Assembly (NCBI GenBank): GCA_021146965.1
Contig: GCA_021146965.1_4847.1
Origin: a phage
DNA: 46,431 nucleotides
Strand: one strand, 5' to 3'
Shown: one piece after another, positions 1,515-41,556 of the stretch
Position numbering within the stretch: position 1 is the stretch's first letter
Layout: every line of letters begins with the position of its first letter
The notes under the pieces: model-generated
Database searches by the model: none
Seen by the model: only the letters and a program-made list of their open reading frames with translations
What the model was told of the DNA's origin: nothing
Made by a program: the position numbers and the translations under genes

Positions 1515-1540
1515 AAGCCGCATGAAGCGGCTTTTAATTT
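1515..1540 (+). terminator. rho-independent terminator
   Basis: hairpin AAGCCGC-atga-GCGGCTT followed by T-rich run directly after stop of 1137..1511. Confidence 0.6.
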
Positions 1541-1616
1541 GGTGGACACGGACGAATTTGAACCTTCAATCAGCCGATTATTAGTCGGTTGCTTTAACCA
1601 ATTAAGCTACGCGTCC
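1540..1616 (-). tRNA. tRNA-like gene (77 nt, encoded CCA; anticodon loop CUAAUAA, anticodon reads AAU, identity uncertain)
   Basis: minus-strand sequence GGACGCG-TA-GCTT-AATTGGTTA-AAGC-A-ACCGA-CTAATAA-TCGGC-TGATT-GAAGG-TTCAAAT-TCGTC-CGTGTCC-A-CCA folds as cloverleaf: 7-bp acceptor stem (one G-U), 4-bp D stem with GG in D loop, T8/A9, U33, T-loop TTCAAAT; one mismatch each in anticodon and T stems. Confidence 0.45.
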
Positions 1617-3472: not shown

Positions 3473-3530
3473 AACTCACCTCATTCATATCTCGTTTCGA
3501 TGATTTGAATCTACATCACCACCTCGCAGG

Positions 3531-3556
3531 TGTCAACACTACTGAGATGATATAAT
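3531..3556 (+). promoter_or_regulatory. putative sigma70 promoter with extended -10 (TGaTATAAT)
   Basis: TGTCAACAC 3531-3539 and TGA+TATAAT 3548-3556, ~30 nt upstream of 3586 ATG. Confidence 0.45.
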
Positions 3557-3585
3557 CAACATCAGTCAAATTCAGGATGCAAAAC

Positions 3586-10541: not shown

Positions 10542-12809
10542 ATGGCTACCACACCAACCAATAAACCAATTCCGTCAGAAGACCCGCGCGACCTGAAGTT
10601 TAATGCTGGTAAAATTGACGAAGTTGTCAACTCTGACAATCACTACTACACCGATCGCTTTGGTCATCGCCGCTTTACAATTGCAGGATTCCAACACACC
10701 GCAGAAGAAGCAATTCGTAACTATGGCTACATCACAATGGATAGCTTCGAGGATGGCGCGACGCTGACGTTACCGAATCAGGTTTTGCGCTATGAAGCTA
10801 CTGGAGAATATTACCGCTGGGATGGTGAATTCCCTAAAACAGTCGCTTCTGGTTCAGCTCCTGCATCCGCTGGCGGTGTTGGAATTGGGAAATGGTTGAG
10901 TGTTGGTGATGCAGCCCTGCGCAGCCAGATTTCAGACCCGGATGGTGCGTCCAGTTACCCTGAATTGCAGATGGCAAGATGGCGTGATGAGGGTGATGTT
11001 CGAGGCTGGGGTGCTAAAGGGGATGGTGTAACGGATAGTACGGAGAATATAGCTGCTTCACTAAATTCTCAAAAAGCTGTCGTAGCATCAGACGGTGTAT
11101 TCTCTAGTTCTGGTATTAATAGTAATTACTGTAACTTAGACGGTAGAGGCAGTGGTGTACTAAGTCACCGTTCAAGTACAGGTAACTACTTAGTATTTAA
11201 CAATCTACGCTCAGGTCGCTTAAGTAATATTACGGTAGAAAGTAATAAGGCGACCGATACCACTCAAGGGAAGCAGGTATCTCTTGCTGGTGGTAGTGAT
11301 GTTACTATAAGTGATGTTAATTTCTCAAACGTTAAGGGCATTGGTTTCAGTTTAATCACATACCCTAATAATGCACCCTCTGATGGGCTTATGATTAAAG
11401 GCATTCGAGGTAGCTACTCCGGCTATGCTACTAATAAGGCGGCTGGATGCATACTTGCTGATTCCTCGGTTAACTCCCTCATAAATAACGTCATTGCTAA
11501 GAACTACCCTCAGTTCGGGGCTGTAGAACTGAAAGGTACAGCCAGTTATAACATAGTCAGCAATGTTATAGGGGCAGACTGCCAGCATGTAACTTACAAC
11601 GGTACAGAAGGGTCAATAGCTCCCTCTAACAACCTTATCAATGGGGTAGTGGCTAATAATCCTAAATATGCAGCGGTTGTTGCAGGCAAAGGTAGTGCCA
11701 ACTTAATCTCAGATGTGCTTGTAGATTTCTCAATCTCTGATGCTAGGCAGGCTCACGGTGTTACAGTAGAAGGTTCTGATAACGTCATAAATAATGTGCT
11801 TATGTCAGGATGTGATGGTAATAACTCTTTAGGGCAAGCTCAGACTGCTACAATTGCGCGCTTTATAGGTACAGCTAATAACAACTATGCGTCTGTATTT
11901 CCTAGCTACAGTGCTACAGGTGTTATTACTTTCGAATCAGGTTCTACCCGTAACTTCGTAGAGGTAAAGCATCCGGGAAGGAGAAACGACCTTCTCAGTA
12001 CTGCTAGTGCTATTAGCGGTGCAGATACTATTGACGGCACTAATAATAGCAACGTAGTGCACGCCCCTGCATTAGGGCAGTACATAGGCAGTATGTCCGG
12101 TAGGTTCGAATGGCGGATTAAGTCCATGTCACTTCCGTCAGGCGTTCTTACCTCGGCTGATAAGTACAGAATGCTTGGGGATGGTGCTGTGTCATTAGCT
12201 GTAGGAGGGGGTACTTCTTCTCAAGTTCGCCTATTTACTTCTAATGGTACTTATCGGACAGTATCACTCACCAACGGTAACGTGCGTCTTCCTACCAGTA
12301 GCACAGGTTATTTGCAGTTAGGTTCTGATGCAATGACCCCAGATAGTACTAATACATACGCATTAGGTTCCGCAAGTAGAGCATGGTCTGGCGGTTTTAC
12401 TCAATCAGCATTCACTGTTGTCTCAGATGCTAGGGATAAAACAGAGCCTCTTAATATCTCAGATGCTTTACTGGATGCTTGGTCTGAAGTTGACTTTGTG
12501 CAGTTTCAGTACTTGGACCGAATTGAGGAGAAGGGTGCAGACTCAGCTAGATGGCACTTCGGCATCATCGCTCAGCGAGCTAAGGAGGCATTCGAACGTC
12601 ACGGTATAGATGCACATCGCTATGGCTTCCTGTGCTTCGACAGTTGGGATGATGTATACGAGGAAGATGCCAATGGCTCTCGTAAACTGATTACACCAGC
12701 AGGTTCCCGCTACGGTATTCGTTACGAGGAAGTACTGATATTAGAGGCTGCGTTGATGCGGCGTACTATTAAGCGTATGCAGGAAGCATTAGCTGTTATG
12801 TCTAAGTGA
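10542..12809 (+). CDS. tailspike protein with pectate-lyase-like beta-helix and C-terminal intramolecular chaperone (peptidase S74-type) domain
   Basis: 755 aa; GWGAKGDGVTD motif typical of right-handed beta-helix depolymerases; C-terminal ~130 aa (SDARDKTEPL...WHFGIIAQRAKEAF...YGIRYEEVLILEAALMRR) matches the auto-cleaving chaperone domain of endosialidase/T5 L-shaped fibre type. Confidence 0.8.
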   Translation: MATTPTNKPIPSEDPRDLKFNAGKIDEVVNSDNHYYTDRFGHRRFTIAGFQHTAEEAIRNYGYITMDSFEDGATLTLPNQVLRYEATGEYYRWDGEFPKTVASGSAPASAGGVGIGKWLSVGDAALRSQISDPDGASSYPELQMARWRDEGDVRGWGAKGDGVTDSTENIAASLNSQKAVVASDGVFSSSGINSNYCNLDGRGSGVLSHRSSTGNYLVFNNLRSGRLSNITVESNKATDTTQGKQVSLAGGSDVTISDVNFSNVKGIGFSLITYPNNAPSDGLMIKGIRGSYSGYATNKAAGCILADSSVNSLINNVIAKNYPQFGAVELKGTASYNIVSNVIGADCQHVTYNGTEGSIAPSNNLINGVVANNPKYAAVVAGKGSANLISDVLVDFSISDARQAHGVTVEGSDNVINNVLMSGCDGNNSLGQAQTATIARFIGTANNNYASVFPSYSATGVITFESGSTRNFVEVKHPGRRNDLLSTASAISGADTIDGTNNSNVVHAPALGQYIGSMSGRFEWRIKSMSLPSGVLTSADKYRMLGDGAVSLAVGGGTSSQVRLFTSNGTYRTVSLTNGNVRLPTSSTGYLQLGSDAMTPDSTNTYALGSASRAWSGGFTQSAFTVVSDARDKTEPLNISDALLDAWSEVDFVQFQYLDRIEEKGADSARWHFGIIAQRAKEAFERHGIDAHRYGFLCFDSWDDVYEEDANGSRKLITPAGSRYGIRYEEVLILEAALMRRTIKRMQEALAVMSK

Positions 12810-12887
12810 GTAATACTAGTACGGTTAGATCAGTAGAGTTGGTTAACAGTAGCCTACGTACTACCAGGCTATTATTTATCAAGGTAT

Positions 12888-12915
12888 AAAACCCCGCCCA
12901 GGCGGGGTTTGTTTT
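12888..12915. terminator. bidirectional rho-independent terminator
   Basis: AAAACCCCGCC-cag-GCGGGGTTTGTTTT hairpin between convergent tailspike (+) and ssb (-). Confidence 0.65.
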
Positions 12916-12919
12916 ATCA

Positions 12920-13426
12920 TCAGAACGGAATGTCGTCGTCGAAGTCAATCGGCGGCTCATTGCCTCCTTGTGGGCTTTGTTGTTTTTGTGGCTGTTGTTG
13001 TTGCGGATTTGTCCCCCATCCACCTTGAGGTTGCTGTCCTGATTGCTGGCGTGGTTGTTGCTGATCAGAATCATCACGTCTACCACCAAGCATCTGCATA
13101 ACACCACCCATCTGCGGAATGACAATCTCAGTGGTGTATTTGTCCACGCCGTTGCTGTCAGTCCACTTACGAGTGCGTAGCTGGCCTTCGATATAAACCT
13201 GAGAACCTTTGCGAAGGTATTCGCCTGCAATCTCAGCAAGTTTCCCGAAGATGACCACGCGATGCCACTCGGTCTGTTCTTTCTTTTCTCCTGTCTGCTT
13301 ATCTTTCCACTGCTCAGATGTTGCAACAGAAAGGTTGGCAATTGAAGAGCCTGATGCTGAATATTTAACTTCAGGATCGTTTCCGAGGGTACCGACAATA
13401 ATTACTTTATTTACGCCGCGTGCCAT
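12920..13426 (-). CDS. ssb: single-stranded DNA-binding protein
   Basis: 168 aa; OB-fold N-terminus ([20 protein letters not shown]...WHRVV.FGKLAE), Gln/Pro/Gly-rich linker and acidic C-terminal tail DFDDDIPF. Confidence 0.9.
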
Positions 13427-13429
13427 TTA

Positions 13430-14470
13430 TTAAAATCCTTCAATTGGAGTTGGTTTATGTTCGGTTTTTGTTTCTTCCTGCTGTTCTGGCTGATGATGTT
13501 GCGGTTTAGCCAGTTTTGCAGGGTTGAAATTATCCTGTGGAGTTATTACCACAGGAGGTAATTGCTCATCATTGATAAAAGACTCAATGCGATCATATTC
13601 AGCAGCAGAAGCAGCGAGAGAAGGCCATATTGCACGAATCTTATCTTTCAGGTTATCAGGTATTGATTTCGCCTCTTCCTTCAGTCCTTCCATTCCTTTT
13701 GCTGCTGAAAGCTGAAGTCGTGAGCGCCATGATTCAAACTCTTCGTCAACTTTAACACCAGAGTCCACCCATTTGATGAGTCCTCGACCATGAGCCTCTC
13801 CAATATAGCCATGACGAACGCTTTCACGACCAGACTCAAAGAAGATGGGGCGTAGCTCTTCTGGTAATTTGGTGAACTCCTGAATTTTTCCTCCATCGTG
13901 CATCATCATGCTCACGGTCATCTCGAACATGAAATCTTTCTCGCACACTGGCTGTAACCCAAGTGATACAGGTTCCTTCGGGTTTGCGAAGTCAGTTTTC
14001 TGGCGAGCGCGAAGACAGACAATGATATGCATATTGCTTTGTAGCATGGCATTCATGAACTTCTTGTGTTCAGCTTTGGCGCGCTTCCAGTCAGCCATCT
14101 TTTTACCGTTAAGCAGCGGCTTTTCAGCAATCTCCGTGCAACTGCCTTCACCTTCCCATTCATGCGAACCTGAATCAATAACAAGAACCTTAACGCCGGC
14201 AGCCTGAAACTCTTCAATGGCCTGACGGTAACGGGCCGGGCTGAATGGAGCATACATATCAGCGTGCAGGAATTTGCCATCAAGGATGTTTGAGTACAGG
14301 CGACCGCGACCATTTTCAGTATCAAGGAATCCGATTTCTTCTGGTGAGTCAACCATCCCGCGAGCCAGCTTAAGTGCGCTGTATGTTTTTCCGCTACCAG
14401 ACTGGCCTGAAATACCGATGACTACACGAGAACCTGAACGCTCTGCTGGTTTAATATTGAGAATACCCAT
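13430..14470 (-). CDS. Sak4-like RecA-fold ATPase (ssDNA annealing/recombination)
   Basis: Walker A GISGQSGSGKTYSA near N-terminus, ~340 aa, adjacent to ssb; start placed at ATG 14470 (GAGGTG 6 nt upstream) rather than GTG 14479. Confidence 0.7.
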   Translation of the reverse strand: MGILNIKPAERSGSRVVIGISGQSGSGKTYSALKLARGMVDSPEEIGFLDTENGRGRLYSNILDGKFLHADMYAPFSPARYRQAIEEFQAAGVKVLVIDSGSHEWEGEGSCTEIAEKPLLNGKKMADWKRAKAEHKKFMNAMLQSNMHIIVCLRARQKTDFANPKEPVSLGLQPVCEKDFMFEMTVSMMMHDGGKIQEFTKLPEELRPIFFESGRESVRHGYIGEAHGRGLIKWVDSGVKVDEEFESWRSRLQLSAAKGMEGLKEEAKSIPDNLKDKIRAIWPSLAASAAEYDRIESFINDEQLPPVVITPQDNFNPAKLAKPQHHQPEQQEETKTEHKPTPIEGF

Positions 14471-14487
14471 TTTCATCACCTCACTAA

Positions 14488-15426
14488 TTATAAATTAAAC
14501 TGTTTTTTGAACCATTCAGGCGTTTCCATTTCTATGACAGGATTACCCATTGAATAACCGGGCCACGAATTGGCTTTTTTGCACGCCTTGTAAATTTCCA
14601 TAGCGCCATGCAACTGAATTCGACCGATGCGTAATTGCTCTTCAGTCAAGCGAATTAACGCAGGAATAAATGGTGCTTTCTTTTCCTGAACGAGAAGATT
14701 AACAGAGCGTGGCGCATGACCATATGCCGCAACAAACATGTCGTGCTGCATCGCCATTTTCATAAAGTACCCAAGTCTCGCAGCATGACGGAAAAACTCT
14801 TCTGGCTTGGCGCTCACCGCTGTTTTGTAGTCGATTATGTCGCCACCTTTGGTAAGGCAGTCAAAGCGAACTTTTGCCTTCTCTCCGTTAAGTTCACCTA
14901 GAATTGACACTTCAGCATAAGCACCAGCGAGAAGACTGCTGTAATAGCTGTTTGCGTGGATTACAGCACGCATTTGCTGAATAGCGTCATAATCACCACC
15001 TTCCAGCATTTGCTTTCCTACAGCAGCTTTTTCAGCCTCTTCACGGATGACATCGTAAATTTTCACTGGCTCGCCAGTCGCCTGGATGATTTTGATCACC
15101 TCAGCTTTCGACTTTCCTGAAAGTCCTTTGATGCCTCGTTCTTTTGCCCATGAGTTCATATCACTTACAGTAACAAGCAGGTCATCACCAAAATCTTCTT
15201 TGGTTGGCATTCGTGCATATTCAGCATCAAAACGCTCTGGTTCAAGCAACGCAGTATGGCTACCTGTACCGAATATAAGAGCTTTTGATTGCTCATCCTC
15301 TTCGTCTTTGTATCGCCATGCTGCCGGGCATCTGTCAAGTATATTCCATAATCCAGAACCATTAATGTGCTCTGTGTCAGCATGATAATCCTGATTGCTT
15401 AATTCATTGTTGAAATAAACTCTCAT
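14488..15426 (-). CDS. PD-(D/E)XK family exonuclease (RecB/Cas4-like)
   Basis: ~310 aa with D...D-x-K-type nuclease signature (GGDIIDYKTAVSAKPEEF) and position in recombination module; start ATG 15426/15429. Confidence 0.6.
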   Translation of the reverse strand: MRVYFNNELSNQDYHADTEHINGSGLWNILDRCPAAWRYKDEEDEQSKALIFGTGSHTALLEPERFDAEYARMPTKEDFGDDLLVTVSDMNSWAKERGIKGLSGKSKAEVIKIIQATGEPVKIYDVIREEAEKAAVGKQMLEGGDYDAIQQMRAVIHANSYYSSLLAGAYAEVSILGELNGEKAKVRFDCLTKGGDIIDYKTAVSAKPEEFFRHAARLGYFMKMAMQHDMFVAAYGHAPRSVNLLVQEKKAPFIPALIRLTEEQLRIGRIQLHGAMEIYKACKKANSWPGYSMGNPVIEMETPEWFKKQFNL

Positions 15427-15428
15427 CA

Positions 15429-16055
15429 TCACTCTCCGTGGTTACAGAATTCTTTATGCATCTTTTCTCTGAATTTCATCACAGACAACCTCGCTCTCTC
15501 AATATCATTGAATAACCCAAGATGGTATCTTTTCCCGTTAACATCACAGTAAGCATGCCACTTTTTAACCTGTTTTTGCCAATACACACCTTTAACTCCT
15601 GATGTGTTATTTTTTGGTTTTTTAGCGTTATACTGGTTCTGCATATTTGTTGCGATTCTTAAGTTGCAAATCCTGTTATCGTCACGCACACCGTTAATGT
15701 GATCAATTTGACCTTCAGGCCAGAAACCATAATAAATCAACCATACCAAGCGATGCGCGTAGTATCTTTTATTATTTATGCTTATCTCTATGTATCCGTT
15801 ATGTTTTTTCCTGCCAGCGACACTACCCTTTCTTACACCTCCACCCGTCTTATTTCTAATGAAAACCCCTGTTTCATGGTTGTAATTTAAGCTATCCAAA
15901 ACAACATAACGTGGTATTCTTTTTCTTCTTCCTATGGTGTTTGACTCTGCACTTCCCTGAGCAAAATCTTGCTTTTGCAGTTCCGATAAACTCATTTCCA
16001 CAAACCTCGCACTTCTTAACGGTGATAGCCATTTCTTACCCTCTATTGTAATCAT
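15429..16055 (-). CDS. HNH homing endonuclease with AP2 DNA-binding domain (paralog 1 of 4)
   Basis: IDHINGVRDDNRICNLR HNH motif plus AP2-like SGVKGVYWQKQVKKWHAYCDVNGKRYHLGLF; paralogous to 25547..26059, 34748..35260, 36012..36542. Confidence 0.8.
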   Translation of the reverse strand: MITIEGKKWLSPLRSARFVEMSLSELQKQDFAQGSAESNTIGRRKRIPRYVVLDSLNYNHETGVFIRNKTGGGVRKGSVAGRKKHNGYIEISINNKRYYAHRLVWLIYYGFWPEGQIDHINGVRDDNRICNLRIATNMQNQYNAKKPKNNTSGVKGVYWQKQVKKWHAYCDVNGKRYHLGLFNDIERARLSVMKFREKMHKEFCNHGE

Positions 16056-16100
16056 TTTCCGTTACATTGCAAGTAACTTTTATTTGTTACTAACGATACA

Positions 16101-16526
16101 TTAATCTACGTCATCCAGCAAGCCAAAATAGAAAAGCGTGGCTTTTTTTAATTCATCAAGCCCATAAGCTATGGCAGCATAATGACCAAGCCTGCACATC
16201 TCTGTTAGCACTGCTGATTGATCCTTGCTCACCCTGCTTTTGCTTTTATCGCGGCGCTTTGCTTCAATCATCCCACAACTGTGATTTACCCCCGGAGTCA
16301 TTATCACATTGTCGCCTATACCAGCCTTAACCCCCATCTTCTGGCGCTTCAGCACAAACTGCACCCTGCTTGATGTGCCAGTTTCGTTGGGTACATGAAA
16401 CCACAGAACATCAGGGAAGCGGTGTTGCATCCATGTTCCATAACCCATCTGGTCAGTCTCCTCTTTTGGGCATTCTCCTCGATAACCGCTATCAAATACC
16501 CATATACCGCTATCAAGCTGCTTCAC
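16101..16526 (-). CDS. VRR-NUC domain nuclease
   Basis: 141 aa; GMIEAKRRDK...SKDQSAVLTEMCRLGHYAAIAYGLDEL fits VRR-NUC (D..EAK then Q..w...G) pattern; adjacent to SF2 helicase as commonly seen; GTG start with AAGGA RBS. Confidence 0.6.
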   Translation of the reverse strand: MKQLDSGIWVFDSGYRGECPKEETDQMGYGTWMQHRFPDVLWFHVPNETGTSSRVQFVLKRQKMGVKAGIGDNVIMTPGVNHSCGMIEAKRRDKSKSRVSKDQSAVLTEMCRLGHYAAIAYGLDELKKATLFYFGLLDDVD

Positions 16527-16536
16527 TTTGTTATCC

Positions 16537-18435
16537 TTAAAATTCTTTTCGGTGGATTATGTCGCGACCTTTATCATTAATGCGATGCGTGATGCGTTTT
16601 GGCGCTTTAATCAACCCCGCATACATCATGAACTGCTTGGCGTTCTGGCATTTCAATATTTTCCCAGCCATTGACTTATCATCAAGGTGTGGGAATACAG
16701 CCTTTGCCTTGAACATGTTTTTCATGTGAGTTGCGCCGTCATAAGGGTAGAAAACTTCATTAGCCCAGCCTTCTTTGCCATCACAACGGTTAATCCAGTA
16801 GCGATATAAAATCCCCTCTCCGTCCTTCGTTAGTTGAACCTTGAAATCCATAACATCAGCCCACTCGTTATCTGTATAAGCACGCTCATTCAGTGCCGAA
16901 TTAGGGTCGCGCAACACGTGATCGCAATGTCTGCAATAGCGCGCAGTGGGGTCGTTTTTAGTGCCGCAACCATCATCAAAAATCCGGATTCCGTGCTTAT
17001 CAAAACCGCAACGGATGTAACTGAAAAATTCTTCGCAGCGACCATCTGGAGATAGCGGGTCTTTCCCTATGCATCGACGCGCATATGGGCTGTTCATTGT
17101 TCCACATGTATGACACGGAACTTGTTCGCCACTGCGTTTTGAACGTTGCGCTTCAGCCTCTTCCAGAATCGGGTCTTCATACAGCTGACCAAGCTCAAAC
17201 ATCGTGCCAGAGAAATCAAGAACCAGATGGTCTTCTTTATGATACCCGGCATCAATTTGCTCTTTCTTCAGTAGGCGCATTCCGCGACCAAGAAGCTGGA
17301 CAAGGAGAGTTAGCGACATTATTTTTCGCAATATGCAGCTCGTATCCCATAACGGTATATTTACGCCAGTGGTAAGGGCGGCTATCTGGAATGTGAATTT
17401 TTTACGCCCGGTGTATGCATCTTTTAGAGCCTTCCTTCTGGCTTTTGACCCCATATCTTCTGTAACTATTGAATAACTTCCTTCGGGTAGGTATTTTGCC
17501 GCCTCCTGACAATGTTTTTTACCAGCACATGTAATCAGTACGCCGTTTCTGTTTTTAGTCAACTCCATAACCTTGAGCATGATTTTCTGCGTCAACGTAC
17601 CTTGCTCAAGAATTTCTTTCTGCATCTGCTTGAGCTGCTCGGCGGTAAAGTCCTGAGTACCATCAACATCTGAACCATGAAAATCCGAAAGGTCATAATG
17701 CAGACTATCAACATCATGAAGACCAAAAATTGTTGGAACAAGAAAACCGTTTTCAACCATGTACTTGGTGTCTATGTTGATAATCTCTTTCTTCCAGAAA
17801 GCGCCTTTTATTGATGTAGTTCCGCGAAACGGTGAGCCTGTATAACCTATTATTCTCAACTCATGGCCATGCTTATCTTTACACCTTTTCATTAGCTCAT
17901 TAATTATCACTGCATACTGCGTATCACCATTATTAACAACATCAATGTCATTAACCATATGATTTTCATCGATCAGCAGGAATCTTGGGCAAAAGTCAGA
18001 GAGCGCACCTTTTGCAATAACATTCCCATGCTCATCTTTTTTATCAAACAAAGCATTTACAACAGTACCCTCAGAACCACAGATTATTGGGTACGTAGAA
18101 CTTTTCCTACCCAACGAAGCACTGAATAGCGAGTTTCTAACACCAAGCAACCATAGCTCTTCCGCATCTTGCTCCACTATTTCGCCCTGTCTTGATAAAA
18201 TCATCCCTGAATAGCCCATCTCCTGAAAACGCTTTGCTATCATGGCAATCATCAGTGACTTTCCGCTACCGACACTTGCTGTTACATAGCTTGGGCCAAC
18301 ATAATGACGAATCACATCGCCAGTTAACTTATATATCAACCACTGATAGGGTCTTGGCTCGATATCACCAGTATCCAGATAAGATTTCAGCAGATTAATA
18401 TCAATCTCTGAAATCATTTTGTCGATTTTATGCAT
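16537..18435 (-). CDS. SF2 DNA helicase (DEAD/DEAH-type) with C-terminal zinc-ribbon region
   Basis: motif I ASVGSGKSLMIAMIA, motif II LLIDENH, Cys-rich C-terminal segment (CHTCG...CRHCDH); start at ATG 18435. Confidence 0.8.
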   Translation of the reverse strand: MHKIDKMISEIDINLLKSYLDTGDIEPRPYQWLIYKLTGDVIRHYVGPSYVTASVGSGKSLMIAMIAKRFQEMGYSGMILSRQGEIVEQDAEELWLLGVRNSLFSASLGRKSSTYPIICGSEGTVVNALFDKKDEHGNVIAKGALSDFCPRFLLIDENHMVNDIDVVNNGDTQYAVIINELMKRCKDKHGHELRIIGYTGSPFRGTTSIKGAFWKKEIINIDTKYMVENGFLVPTIFGLHDVDSLHYDLSDFHGSDVDGTQDFTAEQLKQMQKEILEQGTLTQKIMLKVMELTKNRNGVLITCAGKKHCQEAAKYLPEGSYSIVTEDMGSKARRKALKDAYTGRKKFTFQIAALTTGVNIPLWDTSCILRKIMSLTLLVQLLGRGMRLLKKEQIDAGYHKEDHLVLDFSGTMFELGQLYEDPILEEAEAQRSKRSGEQVPCHTCGTMNSPYARRCIGKDPLSPDGRCEEFFSYIRCGFDKHGIRIFDDGCGTKNDPTARYCRHCDHVLRDPNSALNERAYTDNEWADVMDFKVQLTKDGEGILYRYWINRCDGKEGWANEVFYPYDGATHMKNMFKAKAVFPHLDDKSMAGKILKCQNAKQFMMYAGLIKAPKRITHRINDKGRDIIHRKEF

Positions 18436-18698
18436 TACCAAATCCTCGCACCAAGACGTTCAATTGTTTGTTTCTTTGTTTCATCATCTATTCCGCTATA
18501 AAAATACATATAACTAAGATTCCATAGATAATCTTCTGGTCGCTCATCGGCAAACAAATCATCCCACTCAAAAATCCATTCTCCAGTTCTCTGTCTTCTG
18601 TATATGGTTAGCCATGTATTGCTTCGTGGCGGGTATCCGAAGGAAACAGGGATTGGCTTGCCATGAAAAATCCTCTTAAAAATGCTATCAAGGAACAC
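18435..18698 (-). CDS. hypothetical protein
   Basis: 87-aa ORF, GTG start with upstream AGGA; first gene of leftward transcript from 18699-18773 intergenic region. Confidence 0.4.
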   Translation of the reverse strand: MFLDSIFKRIFHGKPIPVSFGYPPRSNTWLTIYRRQRTGEWIFEWDDLFADERPEDYLWNLSYMYFYSGIDDETKKQTIERLGARIW

Positions 18699-18713
18699 TG
18701 CTATATCCTTTTA

Positions 18714-18742
18714 TTGATGTTTCTACGTCAGTTAGCTTATAC
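18714..18742 (+). promoter_or_regulatory. putative sigma70 promoter for primase gene
   Basis: TTGATG (18714-18719) - 17 nt - TTATAC (18737-18742); spacer contains TCTACGTCA motif copy. Confidence 0.4.
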
Positions 18743-18773
18743 TCAATCTACACCAACAATCAAGGGTAAATTT

Positions 18774-19727
18774 ATGAGATACGACTGGAAAGACATTGAG
18801 CCAAAAATGATCGGAAATTGGCAAGCTGCCATCATGTCTATCGTCAATGTGGATAGCAGAGTTTTCAATGGCAAGCACCAGCCATGCCCGTCATGCTCAG
18901 GAAAAGACAGGTATCGCTTTGATGACAACTTCGAAACAAAAGGCGATGGCGGCGCAATCTGCAATCAGTGCGGTTCCGGCAGCGGCATGAATTGGCTGAT
19001 GAAACTCTCCGGAATGAGCTTTCCTGAAGCGCTGGAGGCACTTGGTGGATTCCTGAATATGCACCCGCGTGAAAAGCTGGAGGCAATCAGGAAAGAGCTA
19101 CCGAAGATAAATCACAGCGATGACTTCATCACCGAGCAGGAAGTCGCAGCAATCATGGCTAAAACGACTCGTGTCGCGATGAATGAGTGGACTTTGATAA
19201 ATGGTATTGGTTGCGACGTTAACGTCACCAGAGGCAAATCTGGAGAACTTATTGCGGTTGAGATGATGCGAGCTGACACAATGAAACTGTGCAACGTGGC
19301 ATTCATTGGCATGGATGGTGATTCAATCAGAACGTTTTTCCGCGCAGGATACAACAAGGACTCAGCCATCAACGGCAAACTCACGCGCGGCGCGATAAGC
19401 CCAATCGGAGAAGACAACGGGAAGTTCATTTACCTGGTATCTGATTATGCCGATGCGTGGAAATGCCACTACTTCACTGGCGCTCATGCCTGGTGCTGCT
19501 GGTCGCCGGAAAACATGTGGGAGGTTGTGCGCTCGGTTAGCGATGAAACGAAGGCGAGATTGCGCTGCATAGTTAATTATAAATTCGACGAACTTTGCGC
19601 TGCGGAAAATGCAGGGCTTCCGGTGATGCTTCCTGATGATGCTGAAACAATAAGGATGGCAAAGAGAATCAGGAGAAAGATTTATGACGCTGGCGAGCTG
19701 ATAGAGAAAATGCCAGTAAGCAGATAA
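18774..19727 (+). CDS. putative DNA primase (P4-alpha-type zinc-binding domain plus toprim-like region)
   Basis: HQPCPSCSGKDRYRFDD...GGAICNQCGSGSGMNWLMKLSGMSFPEALEAL is the classic primase zinc-binding signature; start at ATG 18774 with AAGGG RBS; encoded opposite to surrounding replication genes. Confidence 0.65.
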   Translation: MRYDWKDIEPKMIGNWQAAIMSIVNVDSRVFNGKHQPCPSCSGKDRYRFDDNFETKGDGGAICNQCGSGSGMNWLMKLSGMSFPEALEALGGFLNMHPREKLEAIRKELPKINHSDDFITEQEVAAIMAKTTRVAMNEWTLINGIGCDVNVTRGKSGELIAVEMMRADTMKLCNVAFIGMDGDSIRTFFRAGYNKDSAINGKLTRGAISPIGEDNGKFIYLVSDYADAWKCHYFTGAHAWCCWSPENMWEVVRSVSDETKARLRCIVNYKFDELCAAENAGLPVMLPDDAETIRMAKRIRRKIYDAGELIEKMPVSR

Positions 19728-19755
19728 AATAAACCCTCCGACTGGAGGGTTTTTG

Positions 19756-20061
19756 TTATGCTTTGATGTTAACTTTTATTGCGAACACTTCCACCGGGTC
19801 AGGACCGAAGTGTGGGTGGGTGATGGTCTTAACCGTCCATCCATCGTATGGGATATCAATACGCCTGGATTTATCGTCCTTCTTTGGATATCCTTTTGTG
19901 ATAATTAACCTTTCGTACTTCCTTCCAATCTGTCCGCTGTCTTTAAAGTTAATAAGGCGCTTCTTCCAGTAGTCATTAAAAAGGCGATACTCTTCCGTTT
20001 TCTCTCCGCGAATCATGGCATCGAAGTATTCACCTTTGACAGCAAGTTGCAGGTTAGCCAT
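19756..20061 (-). CDS. ASCH-domain-like protein
   Basis: N-terminus MANLQLAVKGEYFDAMIRGEKTEEYR resembles ASCH/PUA-like fold signature; start at ATG 20061. Confidence 0.45.
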   Translation of the reverse strand: MANLQLAVKGEYFDAMIRGEKTEEYRLFNDYWKKRLINFKDSGQIGRKYERLIITKGYPKKDDKSRRIDIPYDGWTVKTITHPHFGPDPVEVFAIKVNIKA

Positions 20062-20318
20062 TACCGCGCCTCCAGTCTCCATACCGCCTGACCAATCCGG
20101 CTGGCATAGGTGTCTTTGGATACCGCTACGTCTTTAGCCAGCTTCATAAGAATTTTTCGCAAATCTGCCGAACGCCATTCTTCATCAGGAAATTCCTTCT
20201 CCATTGCCAACCGCAAATTCCATGTTGCTATCCTGAATGGATATTCCCCGCCGAGAGCTTTCTCTTGCAGGGCAGCCCGGGAACGCATCACCTGCAAAAC
20301 CTTCTCTTTTACATCCAT
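20061..20318 (-). CDS. hypothetical protein
   Basis: 85-aa ORF in leftward operon, ATG start. Confidence 0.45.
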   Translation of the reverse strand: MDVKEKVLQVMRSRAALQEKALGGEYPFRIATWNLRLAMEKEFPDEEWRSADLRKILMKLAKDVAVSKDTYASRIGQAVWRLEAR

Positions 20319-20328
20319 TTCCTTACCC

Positions 20329-20520
20329 TCACTTAATCATCAATTTTGAAATGTCAACATAACCAACAGAAAATCTGTGCCAGTAATCATCAAGTACGTG
20401 GTAATTAGATCGAATCCATACTTTGTTAATCCCAGACCAGAAAAACCACGTCGAATAACCATACGGTCTGAAATTCCATGAGCCTTCTGAGCGGCAAAGT
20501 TCGCCTGATATTGTTATCAT
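20329..20520 (-). CDS. hypothetical protein
   Basis: 63-aa ORF, ATGA-coupled to upstream gene. Confidence 0.4.
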   Translation of the reverse strand: MITISGELCRSEGSWNFRPYGYSTWFFWSGINKVWIRSNYHVLDDYWHRFSVGYVDISKLMIK

Positions 20521-22073
20521 TTCAACCTCGGATTTATGTGAACAGTGTTTCCGATAAATACGCAGTAACCATCCTCTTCAAGTGATGGCAATACACTTGA
20601 TCTGAGTCGGTCATAAATTTTAGGTATCCCTTTGAATGGTCGCACGTTTTTAAGTGAATCATAAAGCCACTTCACCGTTACGCTATTTTTCCCTTTCTGA
20701 GCGGCGGAGCGTAGTTTTTCGGCAACAACATCAAACTCAGATCGTTCACCAGCATACCCATTTGATTCAACAGCATCAGTGAACGTTTTTGTCAGTGCGT
20801 CATAAACACTGATGGCGCGACTAATTTCATTTTCACCGATAATCTTTGAACGCTTTCCTCCATCGCACCAGTTTTCAGCAGCGTGAAATATTGCTGCCAG
20901 ACGTATTATTTGCTTATCAGCTTTACCCATCGCGCCACGAAGAAGAACGTGGTCCCACTTACCGCCGGGAAGGAAGTTTTTCTCCCACTGATTTCGTAAC
21001 AGGCCGATCATTCTTGCTGAGTCATTGTGAAGCGTCAGTTTTGTTTTTTCTGCTGACACAACATTATGTATAAATCTTGCATATTCCGACCTCAAGCTGT
21101 CTGGCATTGGCTTGCTTACAGGGCAATCATTAACCATGTCCCAGTGTTCGCGATAGCCAAGCATTGATTGCTCTCGCAACATCAGGAAACGTTCAGAAAG
21201 ACCGTTCCCCCTGTCGCCAGCGGCAAGAATGGCATCAATACTTTCATCCTGCGCAATCACACTTATGTTTCCAAGCACGTAACCAGATGAAACGCCACGA
21301 CCAACACGAGCAGAGCCAATGAATCCGCCATCCCATCCCTTCAGGATGACTTCGGCGTTTGCCTTTCCACCTTCCTTTCCGTAAGAGAGGCCAAGACATG
21401 TGTTAAGAACGCTTGCCTCGTCACTTATCAGATTAAAAAAGCCACCTTCATGGATTGCCTGATGCTGAACAGCCTCCGGCGTTGCGTCAGTAAGTGGGTA
21501 TGTAATCGTATAAAGCTCTTCCAGCTTCTCCTTTTCCCGAGCAATATCGTCGCCGATTAGTGCCTTTGCATTCTGATTGCTGGCCTCTTTATATGCCTTC
21601 ATCAATTCTTCAATGCGAAGATTTATTTTTATGATCTGCTTTTCCATCTTTTTGGAAAGGTTGTCATATTCAATCTTCACCGGATTCATGTGCATTGAGT
21701 TGATAGCGGTTTTCCCTGCTGATGGAGGCTGAGAAGTAACCACGTAAAGAGAAACTGGAAGCTCTGAATGGTAATACTCAACGCTAAAGTTTCTCGTCAT
21801 TGCGCTGGCGACGCAACCAAGTAAATGCATGAACGATGTATTTATTGGGAACTGAACTGCGCGAGCTGCAGCGATTGCATAACGAGACAGCAAATCAGTC
21901 CTGTGCTCACTGGTCAGTTCTGTTTCTGAATACGTTACATCACGCTCCTTACCTTCCTTGATGTCCAGCCACATATTTGAGCTTGGTATCATGCCATAAT
22001 GGAAGGCAACGCGAGCCGGAGATACTTTCAATTCCCTTGCTTCGTTGAAGATGTCTTGAGCTGTGATCATCAT
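20517..22073 (-). CDS. putative replication protein with degenerate P-loop (DUF3987-like)
   Basis: 518 aa; YVVTSQPPSAGKTAIN P-loop-like motif; sits next to primase and origin-like region; family assignment from memory only. Confidence 0.4.
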   Translation of the reverse strand: MMITAQDIFNEARELKVSPARVAFHYGMIPSSNMWLDIKEGKERDVTYSETELTSEHRTDLLSRYAIAAARAVQFPINTSFMHLLGCVASAMTRNFSVEYYHSELPVSLYVVTSQPPSAGKTAINSMHMNPVKIEYDNLSKKMEKQIIKINLRIEELMKAYKEASNQNAKALIGDDIAREKEKLEELYTITYPLTDATPEAVQHQAIHEGGFFNLISDEASVLNTCLGLSYGKEGGKANAEVILKGWDGGFIGSARVGRGVSSGYVLGNISVIAQDESIDAILAAGDRGNGLSERFLMLREQSMLGYREHWDMVNDCPVSKPMPDSLRSEYARFIHNVVSAEKTKLTLHNDSARMIGLLRNQWEKNFLPGGKWDHVLLRGAMGKADKQIIRLAAIFHAAENWCDGGKRSKIIGENEISRAISVYDALTKTFTDAVESNGYAGERSEFDVVAEKLRSAAQKGKNSVTVKWLYDSLKNVRPFKGIPKIYDRLRSSVLPSLEEDGYCVFIGNTVHINPRLK

Positions 22074-22309
22074 GAAATCCTTTTTACGTAAACCATGTCT
22101 TTATCAGGGTATCCAACCTTTGTTGAGAATTTCATTCCTTCATTCCTGCGCATGAAGTAGTTTAATGCGTTCCTCAGGTTTGCAATTCCTCCAAACCTCT
22201 TCGAGTTAATCATCACAGTCTCACCTACTGAAACCGCCGACAACCCAGAAAGAGCTGCATTCTTTTTGCCGTACTTGTCAAGTTTCACAAAAGCCTCCAA
22301 CAGCAACAA
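22070..22309 (-). CDS. hypothetical protein (first gene of leftward early operon)
   Basis: 79-aa ORF with TTG start per track; ATGA-coupled to downstream gene. Confidence 0.35.
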   Translation of the reverse strand: MLLLEAFVKLDKYGKKNAALSGLSAVSVGETVMINSKRFGGIANLRNALNYFMRRNEGMKFSTKVGYPDKDMVYVKRIS

Positions 22310-22362
22310 ATTATAATTGAATCATATCATAACTATTGAATCATGCAACATCAAATACGACT

Positions 22363-22671
22363 CACGTGGGTAGCGTGGGGCAGCCGTGGGGAACATCACC
22401 TTCCCCACGAAGTTTCACTCTAAGTATATGTAATATAATATAATTATTATTATTTGGGTTAATGGGTAATATTATTATTCATATTATAGATAGTAATTAA
22501 CATAATATTAACAAATGGATTATTTGAATATATTTATAAGGGGATGGGTATGAAATCTTCCCCTTTTTACCCACGAAAAATAAAAACATTAAAATCAATT
22601 ATTTACGATGAAAAACGTGGGGCAACTGACCTTCCCCACGACCTGCCCCACGGGTAAAAATTTACCCCACG
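22363..22671. repeat. iteron-like CGTGGGG/CCCCACG heptamer clusters flanking a ~200-bp AT-rich core (putative origin of replication / divergent control region)
   Basis: left cluster: CGTGGG(G) at 22363-22370, 22374-22380, 22384-22391 plus inverted CCCCACG 22403-22409; right cluster: CGTGGGG 22616-22622 plus inverted CCCCACG 22634-22640, 22646-22652, 22665-22671; core 22411-22610 is very AT-rich. Confidence 0.6.
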
Positions 22672-22694
22672 AGCACGTTTTTAACGCATTCATG

Positions 22695-22723
22695 TTGACG
22701 TAGAATCACAACTGATGTAGATT
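22695..22723 (+). promoter_or_regulatory. putative rightward early promoter
   Basis: TTGACG (22695-22700) - 17 nt - TAGATT (22718-22723), 30 nt upstream of first rightward ORF. Confidence 0.55.
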
Positions 22724-22753
22724 GAACTCATAGGAACAAACGAGGGTGAAGAG

Positions 22754-22900
22754 ATGAGAATCAAAGACCGTGAAGAATTTGAAGATGCACAGACTATGGC
22801 GCGCATTGCAGTTAACCGCACAAACAACAGCATTCCTGCAGAAGCATTCTGGAACGCAGCGATGCAGGCTTTAATCTCAGCGTATGGACTCAGCAAATGA
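22754..22900 (+). CDS. small hypothetical protein (48 aa)
   Basis: ATG with GAGGGTG RBS; first of a string of ATGA-coupled small early ORFs. Confidence 0.4.
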   Translation: MRIKDREEFEDAQTMARIAVNRTNNSIPAEAFWNAAMQALISAYGLSK

Positions 22901-22992
22901 CAGGCGCAACACTCGAACTTATCGCCAGTCTGGTTATCGTTGCTGGCATCATTATCGCAGTGGCAGTTTCCAAATCAGGGTATAAGGAGTGA
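22897..22992 (+). CDS. small hydrophobic protein (31 aa)
   Basis: MTGATLELIASLVIVAGIIIAVAVSKSGYKE; single TM helix; ATGA-coupled. Confidence 0.3.
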   Translation: MTGATLELIASLVIVAGIIIAVAVSKSGYKE

Positions 22993-22996
22993 CAAG

Positions 22997-23077
22997 ATGA
23001 GCAACTGGCATAACGAACACATCATGCAATGGTATCGTCGCCGCATTAAGGCAATCATTAACTCTTATGAGGTTTAA
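22997..23077 (+). CDS. small hypothetical protein (26 aa)
   Basis: short ORF with AAGGAG RBS; very low confidence. Confidence 0.2.
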   Translation: MSNWHNEHIMQWYRRRIKAIINSYEV

Positions 23078-23081
23078 CAAG

Positions 23082-23240
23082 ATGAACAACAAGCCAATTC
23101 AGCCAACAGAAGAAATGATTGAAGCAGGTATCCGTGAGCTTATGGAAAACATTGATGTTGAGTGTATGACAGATGATGAGATGAGTGACACCGTGGTTTT
23201 CATCTGGCAAGCAATGTATCAGGCGCACACGGAGAAATAA
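23082..23240 (+). CDS. small acidic hypothetical protein (52 aa)
   Basis: ATG ORF in early region. Confidence 0.35.
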   Translation: MNNKPIQPTEEMIEAGIRELMENIDVECMTDDEMSDTVVFIWQAMYQAHTEK

Positions 23241-23243
23241 CAA

Positions 23244-23426
23244 ATGGCAAAGACTATCTATCGTCGCGAGAAGCTGGAGCCTGAACTCGGTCACGTTGGC
23301 GCACAGAACTTTATGAGTAAGCAGGCACGCAATGCAATGGAATCTATCCGCGTGAATCGCGTTGTGCGCGTGTTTAATGGTGAAGGTAAGCGAAGAGTAA
23401 TGGATGAGCTGATTATCGTATTTTGA
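23244..23426 (+). CDS. hypothetical protein
   Basis: 60-aa ORF from track, ATG start. Confidence 0.4.
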   Translation: MAKTIYRREKLEPELGHVGAQNFMSKQARNAMESIRVNRVVRVFNGEGKRRVMDELIIVF

Positions 23427-41529: not shown

Positions 41530-41556
41530 AAAAGGGGGTTTATCCCCCTTCTTTGT
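41530..41556. terminator. bidirectional rho-independent terminator
   Basis: AAGGGGG-tttat-CCCCCTT hairpin flanked by A-run and T-rich tract, between convergent MCP (+) and 41540..42346 (-). Confidence 0.6.

Follow-up and report, generated by a model that had tools for sequence, protein, structure and literature searches.

A conserved block of coliphage replication and recombination genes from sewage includes a primase-like protein with non-canonical TOPRIM residues

Results

Organization of the block

The window, which is the entire 46,431-nucleotide stretch of phage DNA that was analyzed, is from a sewage coliphage and contains, at 12920–22309, an ordinary block of replication and recombination genes that is already annotated and represents a known system. 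All open reading frames (ORFs) are present in the ORF list of the window at the coordinates and on the strands given in an earlier note, so that its description of leftward genes interrupted by one rightward gene agrees with the strand assignments. Twelve genes lie on the minus strand and one on the plus strand. They form two leftward units, 22309 to 19756 and 18698 to 12920, which are separated by the single rightward gene (18774–19727). The domains that the earlier note had named and left to domain searches (SSB, Sak4-like, PD-(D/E)XK, HNH-AP2, VRR-NUC, SF2, primase and DUF3987) are supported by HMM, profile or fold searches; VRR-NUC falls below the Pfam cut-off, yet profile and fold agree.

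The block belongs to a ~46-kb siphophage of the HC6/Vi II-E1/IME207/C1 group. It is matched by 356 phage records, and HC6 is 98.2% identical in nucleotide sequence across 99% of its length. The records of Vi II-E1, IME207, ST1UNAM, Bas79 and C1 show an identical annotated gene order, with the primase gene inverted as well, and this arrangement is also present in metagenomic relatives in which primase identity is only 35–40%. The dN/dS ratios of block genes (0.02–0.13) indicate strong purifying selection. We found no ORF with the size of a DNA polymerase or with similarity to one, and the annotation of phage C1 likewise lacks such a gene.

SSB, annealase and exonuclease

The second leftward unit ends with genes for recombination proteins, all on the minus strand. 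The SSB (12920–13426; PF00436, E = 1.4e-38) is E. coli-like, with a TIGR00621 score exceeding the family cut-off, and its translation ends in ...DFDDDIPF, which includes the E. coli-type DDDIPF tip. Adjacent to it, a gene extending from 13430 to about 14476–14479 encodes a Sak4-like AAA_24 (RecA-core) ATPase (E = 4e-12; 46.8 bits against a gathering score of 27). In PHROG searches this protein matches phrog_124, "Sak4-like" (2.3e-9), and its top match is phrog_1366 (2.7e-83). Walker A (GSGKT) and Walker B (VLVID) motifs can be read from the translation, and there is a C-terminal extension of ~180 amino acids. In Vi II-E1, IME207 and C1, this exact slot is filled by Erf, a known annealase family, and the last 34 residues are common to the Sak4-like protein and the Erf of these sister phages (85% identity). 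The ATPase is presumed to be the single-strand annealing protein. Sak4 proteins are ATP-dependent annealases that are stimulated by the C-terminal tip of the adjacent SSB (PMC5928155).

The third gene (14488–15426; ORF to 15432) encodes a RecE/exonuclease VIII-like PD-(D/E)XK exonuclease (DUF3799, E = 6e-25; phrog_412, exonuclease VIII, 1.2e-93). Its start at the ATG at 15426 agrees with both the HC6 annotation and a break in homology to sister phages.

An HNH-AP2 cassette

That break marks one edge of a 670-bp mobile cassette (15427–16096) carrying a minus-strand gene for an HNH-AP2 homing-type endonuclease (ORF 15429–16055; HNH_3, E = 1.5e-16; AP2, 26 bits, under the gathering score of 33). 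As the earlier note had proposed, this gene is inserted between the VRR-NUC and exonuclease genes, since homology to Vi II-E1, IME207 and ST1UNAM stops precisely at 15426/15427 and 16096/16097. The two flanks are separated by just 33 bp in Vi II-E1, and a different ORF of ~90 amino acids occupies the site in IME207 and ST1UNAM. The cassette matches 44 phage records but is complete in only 9 of them. At its 5′ end it shares 85% identity with an HNH gene that lies elsewhere in Vi II-E1. The endonuclease gene is free-standing and occupies a single intergenic gap.

VRR-NUC nuclease and RadD-like helicase

The VRR-NUC nuclease gene (16101–16526, minus strand) was assigned from a profile comparison and a predicted fold, since its product scores only E = 0.058 against Pfam VRR_NUC. 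When a 20-sequence profile was compared with PDB sequences, the sole match was the VRR-NUC protein 4qbl (E = 9.5e-5). The AF2 model (pLDDT 86) has 4qbl as its top six Foldseek matches (probability 1.0, TM 0.68–0.76), and D72, E88, K90 and Q103 are invariant. The nuclease is probably a Holliday-junction resolvase. The 4qbl protein is of the junction-cleaving stand-alone VRR-NUC type (PMC4103454).

The neighboring minus-strand gene (16537 to about 18435–18441) encodes a RadD-like SF2 helicase with C-terminal zinc ribbons (Helicase_C, ResIII and Zn-ribbon matches). Its single PDB match is E. coli RadD (6jde, E = 1e-31), and it scores 181 bits against NCBIfam RadD, where the equivalog cut-off is 720.

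Phage nucleases can degrade host DNA, and the exonuclease, VRR-NUC and RadD-like genes could mainly serve host DNA breakdown or anti-defense instead of phage replication and recombination. VRR-NUC domains are also described as antibacterial toxins (PMC9635880). However, synteny with annealase and SSB genes is as in classical recombination modules, the exonuclease is RecE-like, the only solved homologue of the helicase is the repair helicase RadD and the modeled VRR-NUC fold fits junction-cleaving 4qbl. We consider such a role very improbable.

Small ORFs and intergenic elements

A conserved 87-amino-acid ORF (18435–18698, minus strand; phrog_5903, 7.6e-14), annotated in HC6, IME207 and ST1UNAM, heads the second leftward unit. 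The 75-bp divergent spacer between it and the primase-like gene (18699–18773) has promoter-like motifs on both strands. According to the earlier note, the primase gene has its own promoter. A plus-strand candidate, TTGATG-18-TATACT (18714–18743), does match 9 of 12 consensus positions, and a minus-strand TTGATT-16-TATAAG (18763–18736) was found by eye as a motif-level match. However, the 17 promoter-like sites in the region compare with 19.1 expected from shuffles, so that there is no enrichment and the call is a consensus-level guess.

Between the convergent primase-like and ASCH-like genes lies a strong bidirectional intrinsic terminator (19731–19752), with a 9-bp stem, a T-run on each strand, a ΔG of −16.3 kcal/mol and a z score of −5.1. 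The ASCH-like small protein (19756–20082, minus strand; phrog_625, 3.4e-44) matches Pfam ASCH at only E = 0.15; its RefSeq relatives carry the ASCH annotation. It is followed by two small conserved minus-strand ORFs of 85 and 63 amino acids (20061–20520), both annotated in relatives, of which the former matches phrog_2814 (1.3e-48) and the latter had no match in the PHROG search. A 79-amino-acid ORF (22070–22309, minus strand), also annotated in relatives, heads the first leftward unit and matched neither PHROG nor Pfam.

A primase-like protein with non-canonical TOPRIM residues

The only plus-strand gene of the block (18774–19727) is identical in HC6 and encodes a Zn-ribbon primase-like protein with a DnaG/T7-type fold (Zn_Ribbon_Prim, E = 4e-12; PHROG DNA primase, 3e-81). 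In line with the earlier note's designation as a zinc-binding primase, a zinc ribbon and a primase fold are present, but the standard TOPRIM catalytic residues are not. Pfam Toprim gave no match, even at E ≤ 10. When homologues were aligned with the H..TG and N motifs in common as anchors, the positions of the canonical E, D and D (the TOPRIM Glu and DxD) were taken by S223, N268 and K270. The protein also lacks the "HPYL..K" motif found in canonical relatives. The E/D/D residues occur in 69 of 231 aligned homologues, including 26 of 33 fused proteins (>360 amino acids), and are missing from the other 162, nearly all of which are short stand-alone proteins. All four zinc cysteines are nevertheless retained in 237–239 of 239 sequences. 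A primase fold without the standard catalytic residues is the one oddity of the block. Since purifying selection is strong (dN/dS 0.06–0.13), the gene has a function.

What might that function be? One possibility is that the protein keeps the zinc ribbon and fold but synthesizes no primers. It would instead load the DUF3987 helicase or serve as its adaptor, or else recognize the template or origin, and priming would fall to host DnaG, perhaps recruited through the E. coli-type tip of the phage SSB. Beyond the residue changes, zinc-site retention and selection described above, the top structural matches include Twinkle from human and fish. The primase-like domain of metazoan Twinkle is not known to have primase activity. 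For T7, primase-domain residues are described as required for helicase loading (PMC9198812), which also counts in favor. However, the non-canonical clade keeps acidic residues of its own: D227 in 138 of 162 members, D/E272 in 131, D/E278 in 143 and an acidic residue at 223 or 224 in 120, with a D-x-D shifted two residues downstream in some members. Such residues might make up a rewired metal site. Moreover, no phage-encoded route for recruiting DnaG is evident. Loss of primer synthesis is therefore possible, but we regard it as doubtful.

DUF3987 helicase and an AT-rich repeat region

In the first leftward unit, a further gene (20517–22073, minus strand) encodes a DUF3987 P-loop protein (E = 1.3e-34; phrog_2373, "DNA helicase", 8e-193), with Walker A (PPSAGKT) and Walker B (VIAQDE) motifs read from the translation and a dN/dS of 0.02–0.04. 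The DUF3987 family is predicted to comprise replicative SF6/MCM-like helicases, often located beside primases (PMC4889955), and one member is a demonstrated 5′-3′ helicase that binds its own primase (PMC11724360). The protein is probably a replicative (SF6-type) helicase.

In remote homologues of the primase-like protein, one polypeptide joins Zn_Ribbon_Prim and Toprim_3 to DUF3987 or to DUF927. As these domains are fused, the separate primase-like and DUF3987 genes are linked at the level of domain families. The argument holds at that level only, since BLASTP revealed no direct similarity between the DUF3987 protein of the window and the DUF3987 domain of the fused homologue P0206. Beside the DUF3987 end of the block lies an AT-rich region flanked by CGTGGGG repeats (22365–22672), a putative replication origin as judged solely from this repeat and AT-rich layout.

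Discussion

We propose, with a probability of roughly 0.75, that the block is a conserved early replication, recombination and repair set that combines an origin-dependent primosome with annealing recombination. The DUF3987 helicase and primase-like protein would form a split primase-helicase primosome that initiates at the AT-rich, CGTGGGG-flanked region, with DNA synthesis carried out by host Pol III. The exonuclease, Sak4-like annealase and SSB would support single-strand-annealing recombination, repairing broken forks and ends and aiding concatemer formation, and the RadD-like helicase and VRR-NUC nuclease may migrate and resolve branched intermediates. The HNH gene would be a selfish passenger. 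As the primase-like protein lacks the TOPRIM Glu, the DxD and a Pfam Toprim match, "primosome" may overstate its role. T1-like relatives that have the primase-like gene show no DUF3987 gene within the 15 kb covered, which counts against the proposal.

The earlier note had read the block as a module for recombination-dependent replication, with a zinc-binding primase transcribed from its own promoter. On this reading, replication would be essentially recombination-dependent, with Sak4, SSB and exonuclease driving initiation, and the primase would be genuine. A full SSB, annealase and exonuclease set is indeed present, together with junction-processing enzymes and a promoter-like motif ahead of the primase-like gene, and S. 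aureus phage replication is described as requiring Sak/Sak4 recombinases (PMC5499656). By analogy, the phage may have a recombination-dependent replication phase. However, recombination is not the whole picture: since a replicative-type DUF3987 helicase adjoins the repeat-flanked AT-rich region and has a primase-like partner, initiation appears to be origin-dependent. Further, recombination is encoded at the far end of the block, one annealase is swapped for another in sister phages, the promoter prediction does not exceed chance expectation and catalysis by the primase-like protein is doubtful. As a full account, this reading is unlikely. What our analysis adds is the finding of non-acidic residues at the TOPRIM sites and of Erf in the Sak4 slot of sister phages, joined to the common 34-residue tail.

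Comparison with known systems

The closest blocks are those of the Escherichia phages HC6 (OL362274), 6947 and HC8A and of ST1UNAM, in which gene order and strands are as in the window. HC6 also carries the HNH-AP2 cassette, but it differs from the window by an additional HNH endonuclease gene, located between the SSB and Sak4-like genes, and by an SSB gene of only 85% identity. In the Salmonella phage ST1UNAM, a 91-amino-acid ORF replaces the cassette.

Vi II-E1 (Macdonaldcampvirus, Salmonella), IME207 (Shuimuvirus) and C1 (Deseoctovirus, Escherichia) share the order SSB, annealase, exonuclease, VRR-NUC, SF2 helicase, inverted primase, DUF3987 and repeat region, with most genes 80–95% identical to those of the window. 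The Vi II-E1 record already annotates the GTGGGGCAAC...CCCCACGA repeats. Unlike the window, these phages encode Erf as annealase, with just the last 34 residues in common, and have no HNH gene between exonuclease and VRR-NUC; that of Vi II-E1 lies instead between the helicase and primase genes.

The replication genes resemble those of T1-like phages (Drexlerviridae; for example BEK1-1, TLS and T1), which encode a short Zn-ribbon primase-like homologue (35% identity). In BEK1-1, an SF2 helicase–VRR-NUC pair is divergent from a plus-strand primase gene, as in the window. BEK1-1 also has Erf and a DUF3799 exonuclease, but their order differs, genes for a Cro-like and an HNH protein lie ahead of the primase gene and, unlike in the window, there is no DUF3987 gene within the 15 kb examined. 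For phage TLS, the absence of a DNA polymerase is reported, and its primase and helicase genes are described as oppositely oriented (PMC11447400).

In T7 gp4 and the fused Zn-ribbon/Toprim_3/DUF3987 (or DUF927) primase-helicases of mobile elements, one protein contains what the window encodes as separate genes on opposite strands. In the window protein, S223 and N268/K270 take the place of the TOPRIM Glu and DxD, and the DUF3987 protein of the window is only distantly related to the DUF3987 of the fusions.

Finally, the Sak4-SSB pair of HK620 resembles that of the window: the ATPase has an AAA_24 RecA core and both Walker motifs (A and B), its gene adjoins ssb, and the ssb product has an acidic-aromatic C-terminal tip (PMC5928155). 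Compared with HK620 Sak4, the window protein (348 amino acids) has a long C-terminal extension, and its top PHROG match, phrog_1366, is a separate family with no assigned function. The SSB of the window is classical and E. coli-like, whereas that of HK620 is of the distant DUF669 type (PMC5928155).

Gene content and conservation of the block

The replication and recombination genes at 12920-22309 (12 minus-strand ORFs and one plus-strand ORF) form a known system with existing annotation in public records. Escherichia phages HC6, 6947 and HC8A are 98.2% identical to the block over 99% of its length, and 356 phage records match it in all. Gene order and strands are identical in the records of HC6, Bas79, Vi II-E1 (Macdonaldcampvirus), IME207 (Shuimuvirus), ST1UNAM and C1 (Deseoctovirus), the inverted primase gene included, and RefSeq homologues carry the names 'VRR-NUC domain-containing protein', 'DEAD/DEAH box helicase', 'exonuclease VIII', 'DNA primase' and 'DNA helicase'. 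The whole layout is also kept in two metagenomic contigs (L010 and L011) at 35-40% primase identity. There, leftward genes for Erf, exonuclease, VRR-NUC and SF2 helicase, with an SSB gene too in one of the two contigs, are followed by the rightward primase gene, a leftward DUF3987 gene and then rightward early genes.

Searches of the block proteins against Pfam, PHROG and NCBIfam backed nearly all of the domain labels proposed in the earlier note; the sole HMM failure was VRR-NUC, which was rescued by profile and fold comparisons. When the primase, DUF3987, Sak4-like and exonuclease sequences were each searched singly against PDB sequences, no useful match emerged. From overlaps with neighboring genes and the annotation of relatives, start codons were re-placed at 15426 (exonuclease), 18435 (helicase) and 14476 or 14470 (Sak4-like gene). 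Rfam, run in E-value mode over 12500-23300, identified no known RNA element, as its two matches both fell far under their gathering scores.

Upstream of the block, a plus-strand gene at 10542-12809 encodes a 755-aa tail spike or tail fiber. The ST1UNAM gene at this position is annotated as endo-N-acetylneuraminidase, which hints at a K1-capsule-specific phage. ARAGORN also called a tRNA-Ile with the unusual anticodon AAT at 1540-1616 (minus strand), a call that may be spurious.

The SSB gene and the adjacent annealase slot

The SSB gene (12920-13426, minus strand) is firmly assigned by PF00436 (E = 1.4e-38; 131.6 bits against a cut-off of 26) and TIGR00621 (183.9 bits against 53.95). Its product ends in ...IDFDDDIPF, an acidic tip, of the kind on which partner proteins dock, that matches the DDDIPF of E. 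coli SSB (PMC5928155). Three nucleotides away, in the recombinase slot of the module, a minus-strand gene at 13430-14479 encodes an AAA_24 ATPase (46.8 bits against a gathering score of 27) with GSGKT and VLVID motifs, which matches phrog_124, 'Sak4-like ssDNA annealing protein', at 2.3e-9. The best PHROG for this protein is phrog_1366, a family of unknown function; the Pfam match spans residues 19-168 of 349, and the other ~180 residues match phrog_1366 only.

The same slot is occupied by Erf in Vi II-E1, IME207, C1 and two remote contigs and by AAA_24 in the window, HC6, ST1UNAM and Bas79. Since Erf, a known annealase, lies in exactly that position, and since Sak4 carries out ATP-dependent annealing that is stimulated via the last six residues of the adjacent SSB (PMC5928155), position and analogy support the AAA_24 protein as the probable annealase of the module.

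The last 34 residues of the Sak4-like protein (window 13430-13531, minus strand) are 85% identical to the tail of Vi II-E1 Erf (...FNPAKLAKPQ..EETKTEHKPTPIEGF). In a Klebsiella phage, an AAA_24 core of 98.8% identity lacks this 34-residue tail, so that the tail travels with the SSB side of the junction. The presence of one tail on two unrelated annealases beside the same SSB gene suggests a portable docking peptide; the tail may be such a peptide, or it may merely mark a recombination breakpoint.

Exonuclease, VRR-NUC nuclease and RadD-like helicase

The gene at 14488-15432 (minus strand) encodes a RecE/exonuclease VIII-like PD-(D/E)XK nuclease (DUF3799, 88.8 bits against 26; phrog_412, 1.2e-93) that contains an ...IIDYK... 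motif. For the VRR-NUC protein, the match to Pfam PF08774 was 13.9 bits, under the gathering score of 23.8 (E = 0.058), and a word-indexed search for homologues returned only close relatives (51-93% identity), none with a Pfam label. Three further lines of evidence bear on this assignment. D72, E88, K90 and Q103, which make up a D...ExK...Q signature, are invariant in 20 of 20 homologues that are 51-93% identical. A profile of these homologues, searched against PDB sequences, matched only the VRR-NUC crystal structure 4qbl (E = 9.5e-5). Lastly, the six best Foldseek matches of an AlphaFold2 model (pLDDT 86) were all 4qbl chains (probability 1.0, target TM 0.68-0.76), followed by the VRR-NUC structures 4qbn and 4qbo and by FAN1. 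Given the invariant signature, the profile match and the fold, the VRR-NUC label stands. Stand-alone VRR-NUC proteins form dimers and cut four-way junctions (PMC4103454).

Outside the block, putative endonuclease VII-like, RusA-like Holliday-junction resolvase and ParB-like genes are present (loci listed at 41540-42346, 43523-44062 and 44318-45127, all on the minus strand). If the RusA-like call is right, the phage would encode two putative junction resolvases, the VRR-NUC and RusA-like proteins.

The SF2 helicase (16537-18441, minus strand), which has GSGKS and DENH motifs, matched a single protein among PDB sequences, E. coli RadD (6jde; E = 1e-31, residues 28-516), and its residues 30-628 align to positions 4-565 of the 573 in the NCBIfam RadD model. 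As it scores 181 bits against an equivalog cut-off of 720, we class the helicase, from these comparisons, as RadD-like and not as a RadD ortholog.

HNH genes as mobile occupants of the block

Between the VRR-NUC and exonuclease genes lies a gene for an HNH endonuclease (15429-16055, minus strand; HNH_3, 60.1 bits against 24.8; phrog_99, 1.1e-69). The insertion of an AP2-HNH gene at this site, as previously proposed, is borne out by exact breakpoints and sporadic presence, with the AP2 domain sub-threshold (26.1 bits, under the gathering score of 33.3; E = 1.1e-5). Alignments with Vi II-E1, IME207 and ST1UNAM break off precisely at 15426/15427, immediately after the exonuclease start codon, and pick up again at 16096/16097, just beyond the VRR-NUC stop codon. 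Between these breakpoints, Vi II-E1 has 33 bp, and IME207 and ST1UNAM have an unrelated ORF of ~90 aa. Of the 44 phage records with a match to some part of the 670-bp cassette, only 9 contain all of it.

Other HNH genes begin with a stretch 84-91% identical to the first ~160 bp of the cassette, among them one located in Vi II-E1 between the genes for the helicase and the primase. In HC6, an additional HNH gene, absent from the window, separates the SSB and Sak4-like genes (3523-4023 in HC6, equivalent to window ~13385-13398), and the HC6 SSB gene beside it is 85% identical to ours, compared with 98% for the rest of the block. HNH genes have landed in at least three intergenic gaps of the block. 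The pattern is the usual one for free-standing homing endonuclease genes.

A primase-fold protein with a non-canonical TOPRIM

The single plus-strand gene (18774-19727) encodes a zinc-ribbon primase-like protein (Zn_Ribbon_Prim, 46.5 bits against 23). The cysteines of its Cys4 zinc site (C38, C41, C63 and C66) are invariant, and the four are kept in 237-239 of 239 sequences. Pfam recognized only the zinc ribbon, with no match to a Toprim family at E<=10. An AlphaFold2 model built from 27 homologues (pLDDT 85) had primases as its best structural matches, and Foldseek concurs; on the model, assignment of a DnaG/T7 gp4-type RNA-polymerase domain with a TOPRIM fold is a sound prediction.

Since a profile of the primase-like family found no match among PDB sequences, and hhalign, run with this profile against T7 gp4, recovered an alignment of the zinc ribbon alone (8% probability), the TOPRIM residues were mapped via intermediate homologues. 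These came from an exhaustive profile search, which reached longer proteins in which Zn_Ribbon_Prim and Toprim_3 are joined to DUF3987 or to DUF927, and the alignments were anchored on the common H..TG and N motifs. The longer homologues read hhhhEG[YF]ATG...H..TG...N...hhhhDND and the window protein reads IYLV-S223-D-Y-A-D...H232..T235-G...N247...RCIV-N268-Y-K270, which places S223, N268 and K270 at the canonical E, D and D. Residues 265-275 contain no [DE]x[DE], and the 'HPYL..K' motif of the canonical group is missing as well. The E/D/D triad is found in 69 of 231 aligned homologues, and 26 of these 69 come from the 33 homologues exceeding 360 aa in length. It is absent from the other 162, nearly all of them short stand-alone proteins, which read ANN, AND, SNN, SND or DRD at these positions (SNK in the window).

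Is this simply a decayed TOPRIM? That reading is softened by acidic residues specific to the non-canonical clade (n = 162), namely D227 (138/162), D/E272 (131/162), D/E278 (143/162) and an acidic residue at either 223 or 224 (120/162), and by a possible shifted D-x-D, two residues downstream, in some members of the clade; the window protein has K-F-D there. The gene as a whole is not decaying, since its dN/dS is 0.06-0.13 against four relatives. From the model and the alignments, the product is a predicted primase-fold protein with a non-canonical TOPRIM, and primer synthesis by it is putative.

A bolder proposal, tentative and on balance rather unlikely, is that the annotated 'DNA primase' of this group and of the T1-like phages is a widespread pseudo-primase that would act as a helicase loader or adaptor, with host DnaG supplying the primers. 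Retention of the zinc ribbon and primase fold under strong purifying selection, with non-acidic residues at the TOPRIM Glu and DxD positions, is what suggests it. A loader or adaptor role has precedents in T7 and in Twinkle. For T7, residues of the primase domain are required for helicase loading (PMC9198812). Our search of the available literature on the requirement of phage T1 for host dnaB or dnaG found nothing. In metazoan Twinkle, the primase-like domain is inactive, and a pseudo-primase, if real, would be a parallel in bacterial viruses. That canonical TOPRIM residues are lacking in the annotated primase of a large enterobacterial siphophage clade also matters for the question of which enzyme primes phage DNA synthesis.

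In the remote relatives L011 (7438-8004) and L008 (6938-7423), the primase-like gene is preceded on its own strand by a Cro/YdaS-like HTH gene, which overlaps the primase gene in L011 and is separated from it by an HNH gene in L008; the corresponding spacer in the window is just 75 bp long. The primase ORF becomes longer if it starts at an in-frame ATG further upstream, at 18663, and the primase genes annotated in Bas79 and C1 are longer than that of HC6.

The DUF3987 protein, a probable helicase, and a candidate origin

The P-loop protein encoded at 20517-22073 (minus strand) belongs to DUF3987 (120.5 bits against 27; phrog_2373, 8e-193) and has PPSAGKT and VIAQDE motifs. DUF3987 proteins are predicted to be SF6/MCM-related replicative helicases with a C-terminal winged helix, typically encoded beside or fused to AEP or DnaG-type primases (PMC4889955), and the only member with demonstrated helicase activity is a PriCT-DUF3987 protein, which works 5′-3′ and binds its primase (PMC11724360). 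A distance of 790 bp separates the primase-like gene from the DUF3987 gene, a pairing kept in both metagenomic contigs, and Zn-ribbon/Toprim_3/DUF3987 fusions occur among remote homologues of the primase-like protein. These fusions connect the two genes in the window only at the level of domain families. We considered and rejected a recent split of one such fusion as the source of the two genes, as the window DUF3987 protein showed no significant BLASTP similarity to one fused homologue (P0206).

A repeat region adjoins the start of the DUF3987 operon. Seven of the eight copies of CGTGGGG in the window fall within 300 bp, at 22374-22671, compared with 2.4 expected for the whole window, and at 22365-22672 two clusters of imperfect 25-bp palindromes flank a very AT-rich core (about 22420-22560). 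The CGTGGGG repeats already feature in the annotation of Vi II-E1, and L011 has the same layout at 11614-11905, made from a different repeat, TTTAGGGC. Positions 22365-22672 are likely to be an origin and/or operator region. Promoter-like motifs there point outward on both sides.

Transcription units

A hairpin (19731-19752) fills the 28 bp that separate the primase gene from the convergent ASCH-like gene. It has a 9-bp stem, T-runs on both strands and a folding energy of -16.3 kcal/mol (z = -5.1 against shuffles), which is good structural evidence for a bidirectional terminator. A terminator here divides the leftward genes into two units, 22309 to 19756 and 18698 to 12920, so that a separate promoter is required for the second, either within the 75-bp spacer at 18699-18773 or beyond it. 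Within the spacer are TTGATG-18-TATACT on the plus strand, found by scan, and TTGATT-16-TATAAG on the minus strand, found by eye, both of them motif matches only. The 17 promoter-like sites in the region, against 19.1 expected in shuffled sequence, neither support nor refute any specific promoter. The earlier note had the primase gene transcribed rightward from its own promoter. The gene is indeed on the plus strand, but with motif counts at chance level, the promoter stays a reasonable guess and not a finding. A second hairpin terminator is found at 12889-12910, in the convergent gap between the tail spike or fiber gene and ssb.

How might the phage replicate?

The phage encodes no DNA polymerase. 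The most economical reading is that initiation is origin-dependent and that the host replisome performs synthesis. The DUF3987 helicase and its primase-like partner would initiate at the origin and the host replisome would carry out synthesis, while the SSB, annealase and exonuclease set and the RadD-like/VRR-NUC pair would function in recombination, fork repair and processing of branched intermediates. What the earlier note observed holds, and its interpretation holds in part. The block had been described as a recombination-dependent replication module; although the recombination genes are present, DUF3987, the primase-like partner and the repeat region favor an origin-dependent start. A recombination-dependent phase would nonetheless be plausible by analogy with other phages (PMC5499656).

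Comparison with known systems

The gene block itself offers nothing new, as the same module and product names have been deposited for dozens of phages. The practical value of our analysis is a cleaner annotation, in which the VRR-NUC label goes to the 141-aa nuclease, the RadD-like label to the SF2 helicase and the Sak4-like label, not Erf, to the 'recombinase', with the DUF3987 protein as the likely replicative helicase. The non-canonical TOPRIM, the common annealase tail and the several HNH slots add modestly to what is known and do not amount to a discovery.

In the T1-like phage BEK1-1, a homologous primase-like gene is divergent from an SF2 helicase-VRR-NUC pair, and Erf and exonuclease genes are also present. 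In the T1-like phage TLS, the primase and helicase genes are oppositely oriented and no DNA polymerase is encoded (PMC11447400). Together with the synteny in relatives and remote contigs, this precedent indicates that the arrangement is old, conserved and already described, the opposite orientation of primase and helicase genes having been remarked upon for T1-like phages.
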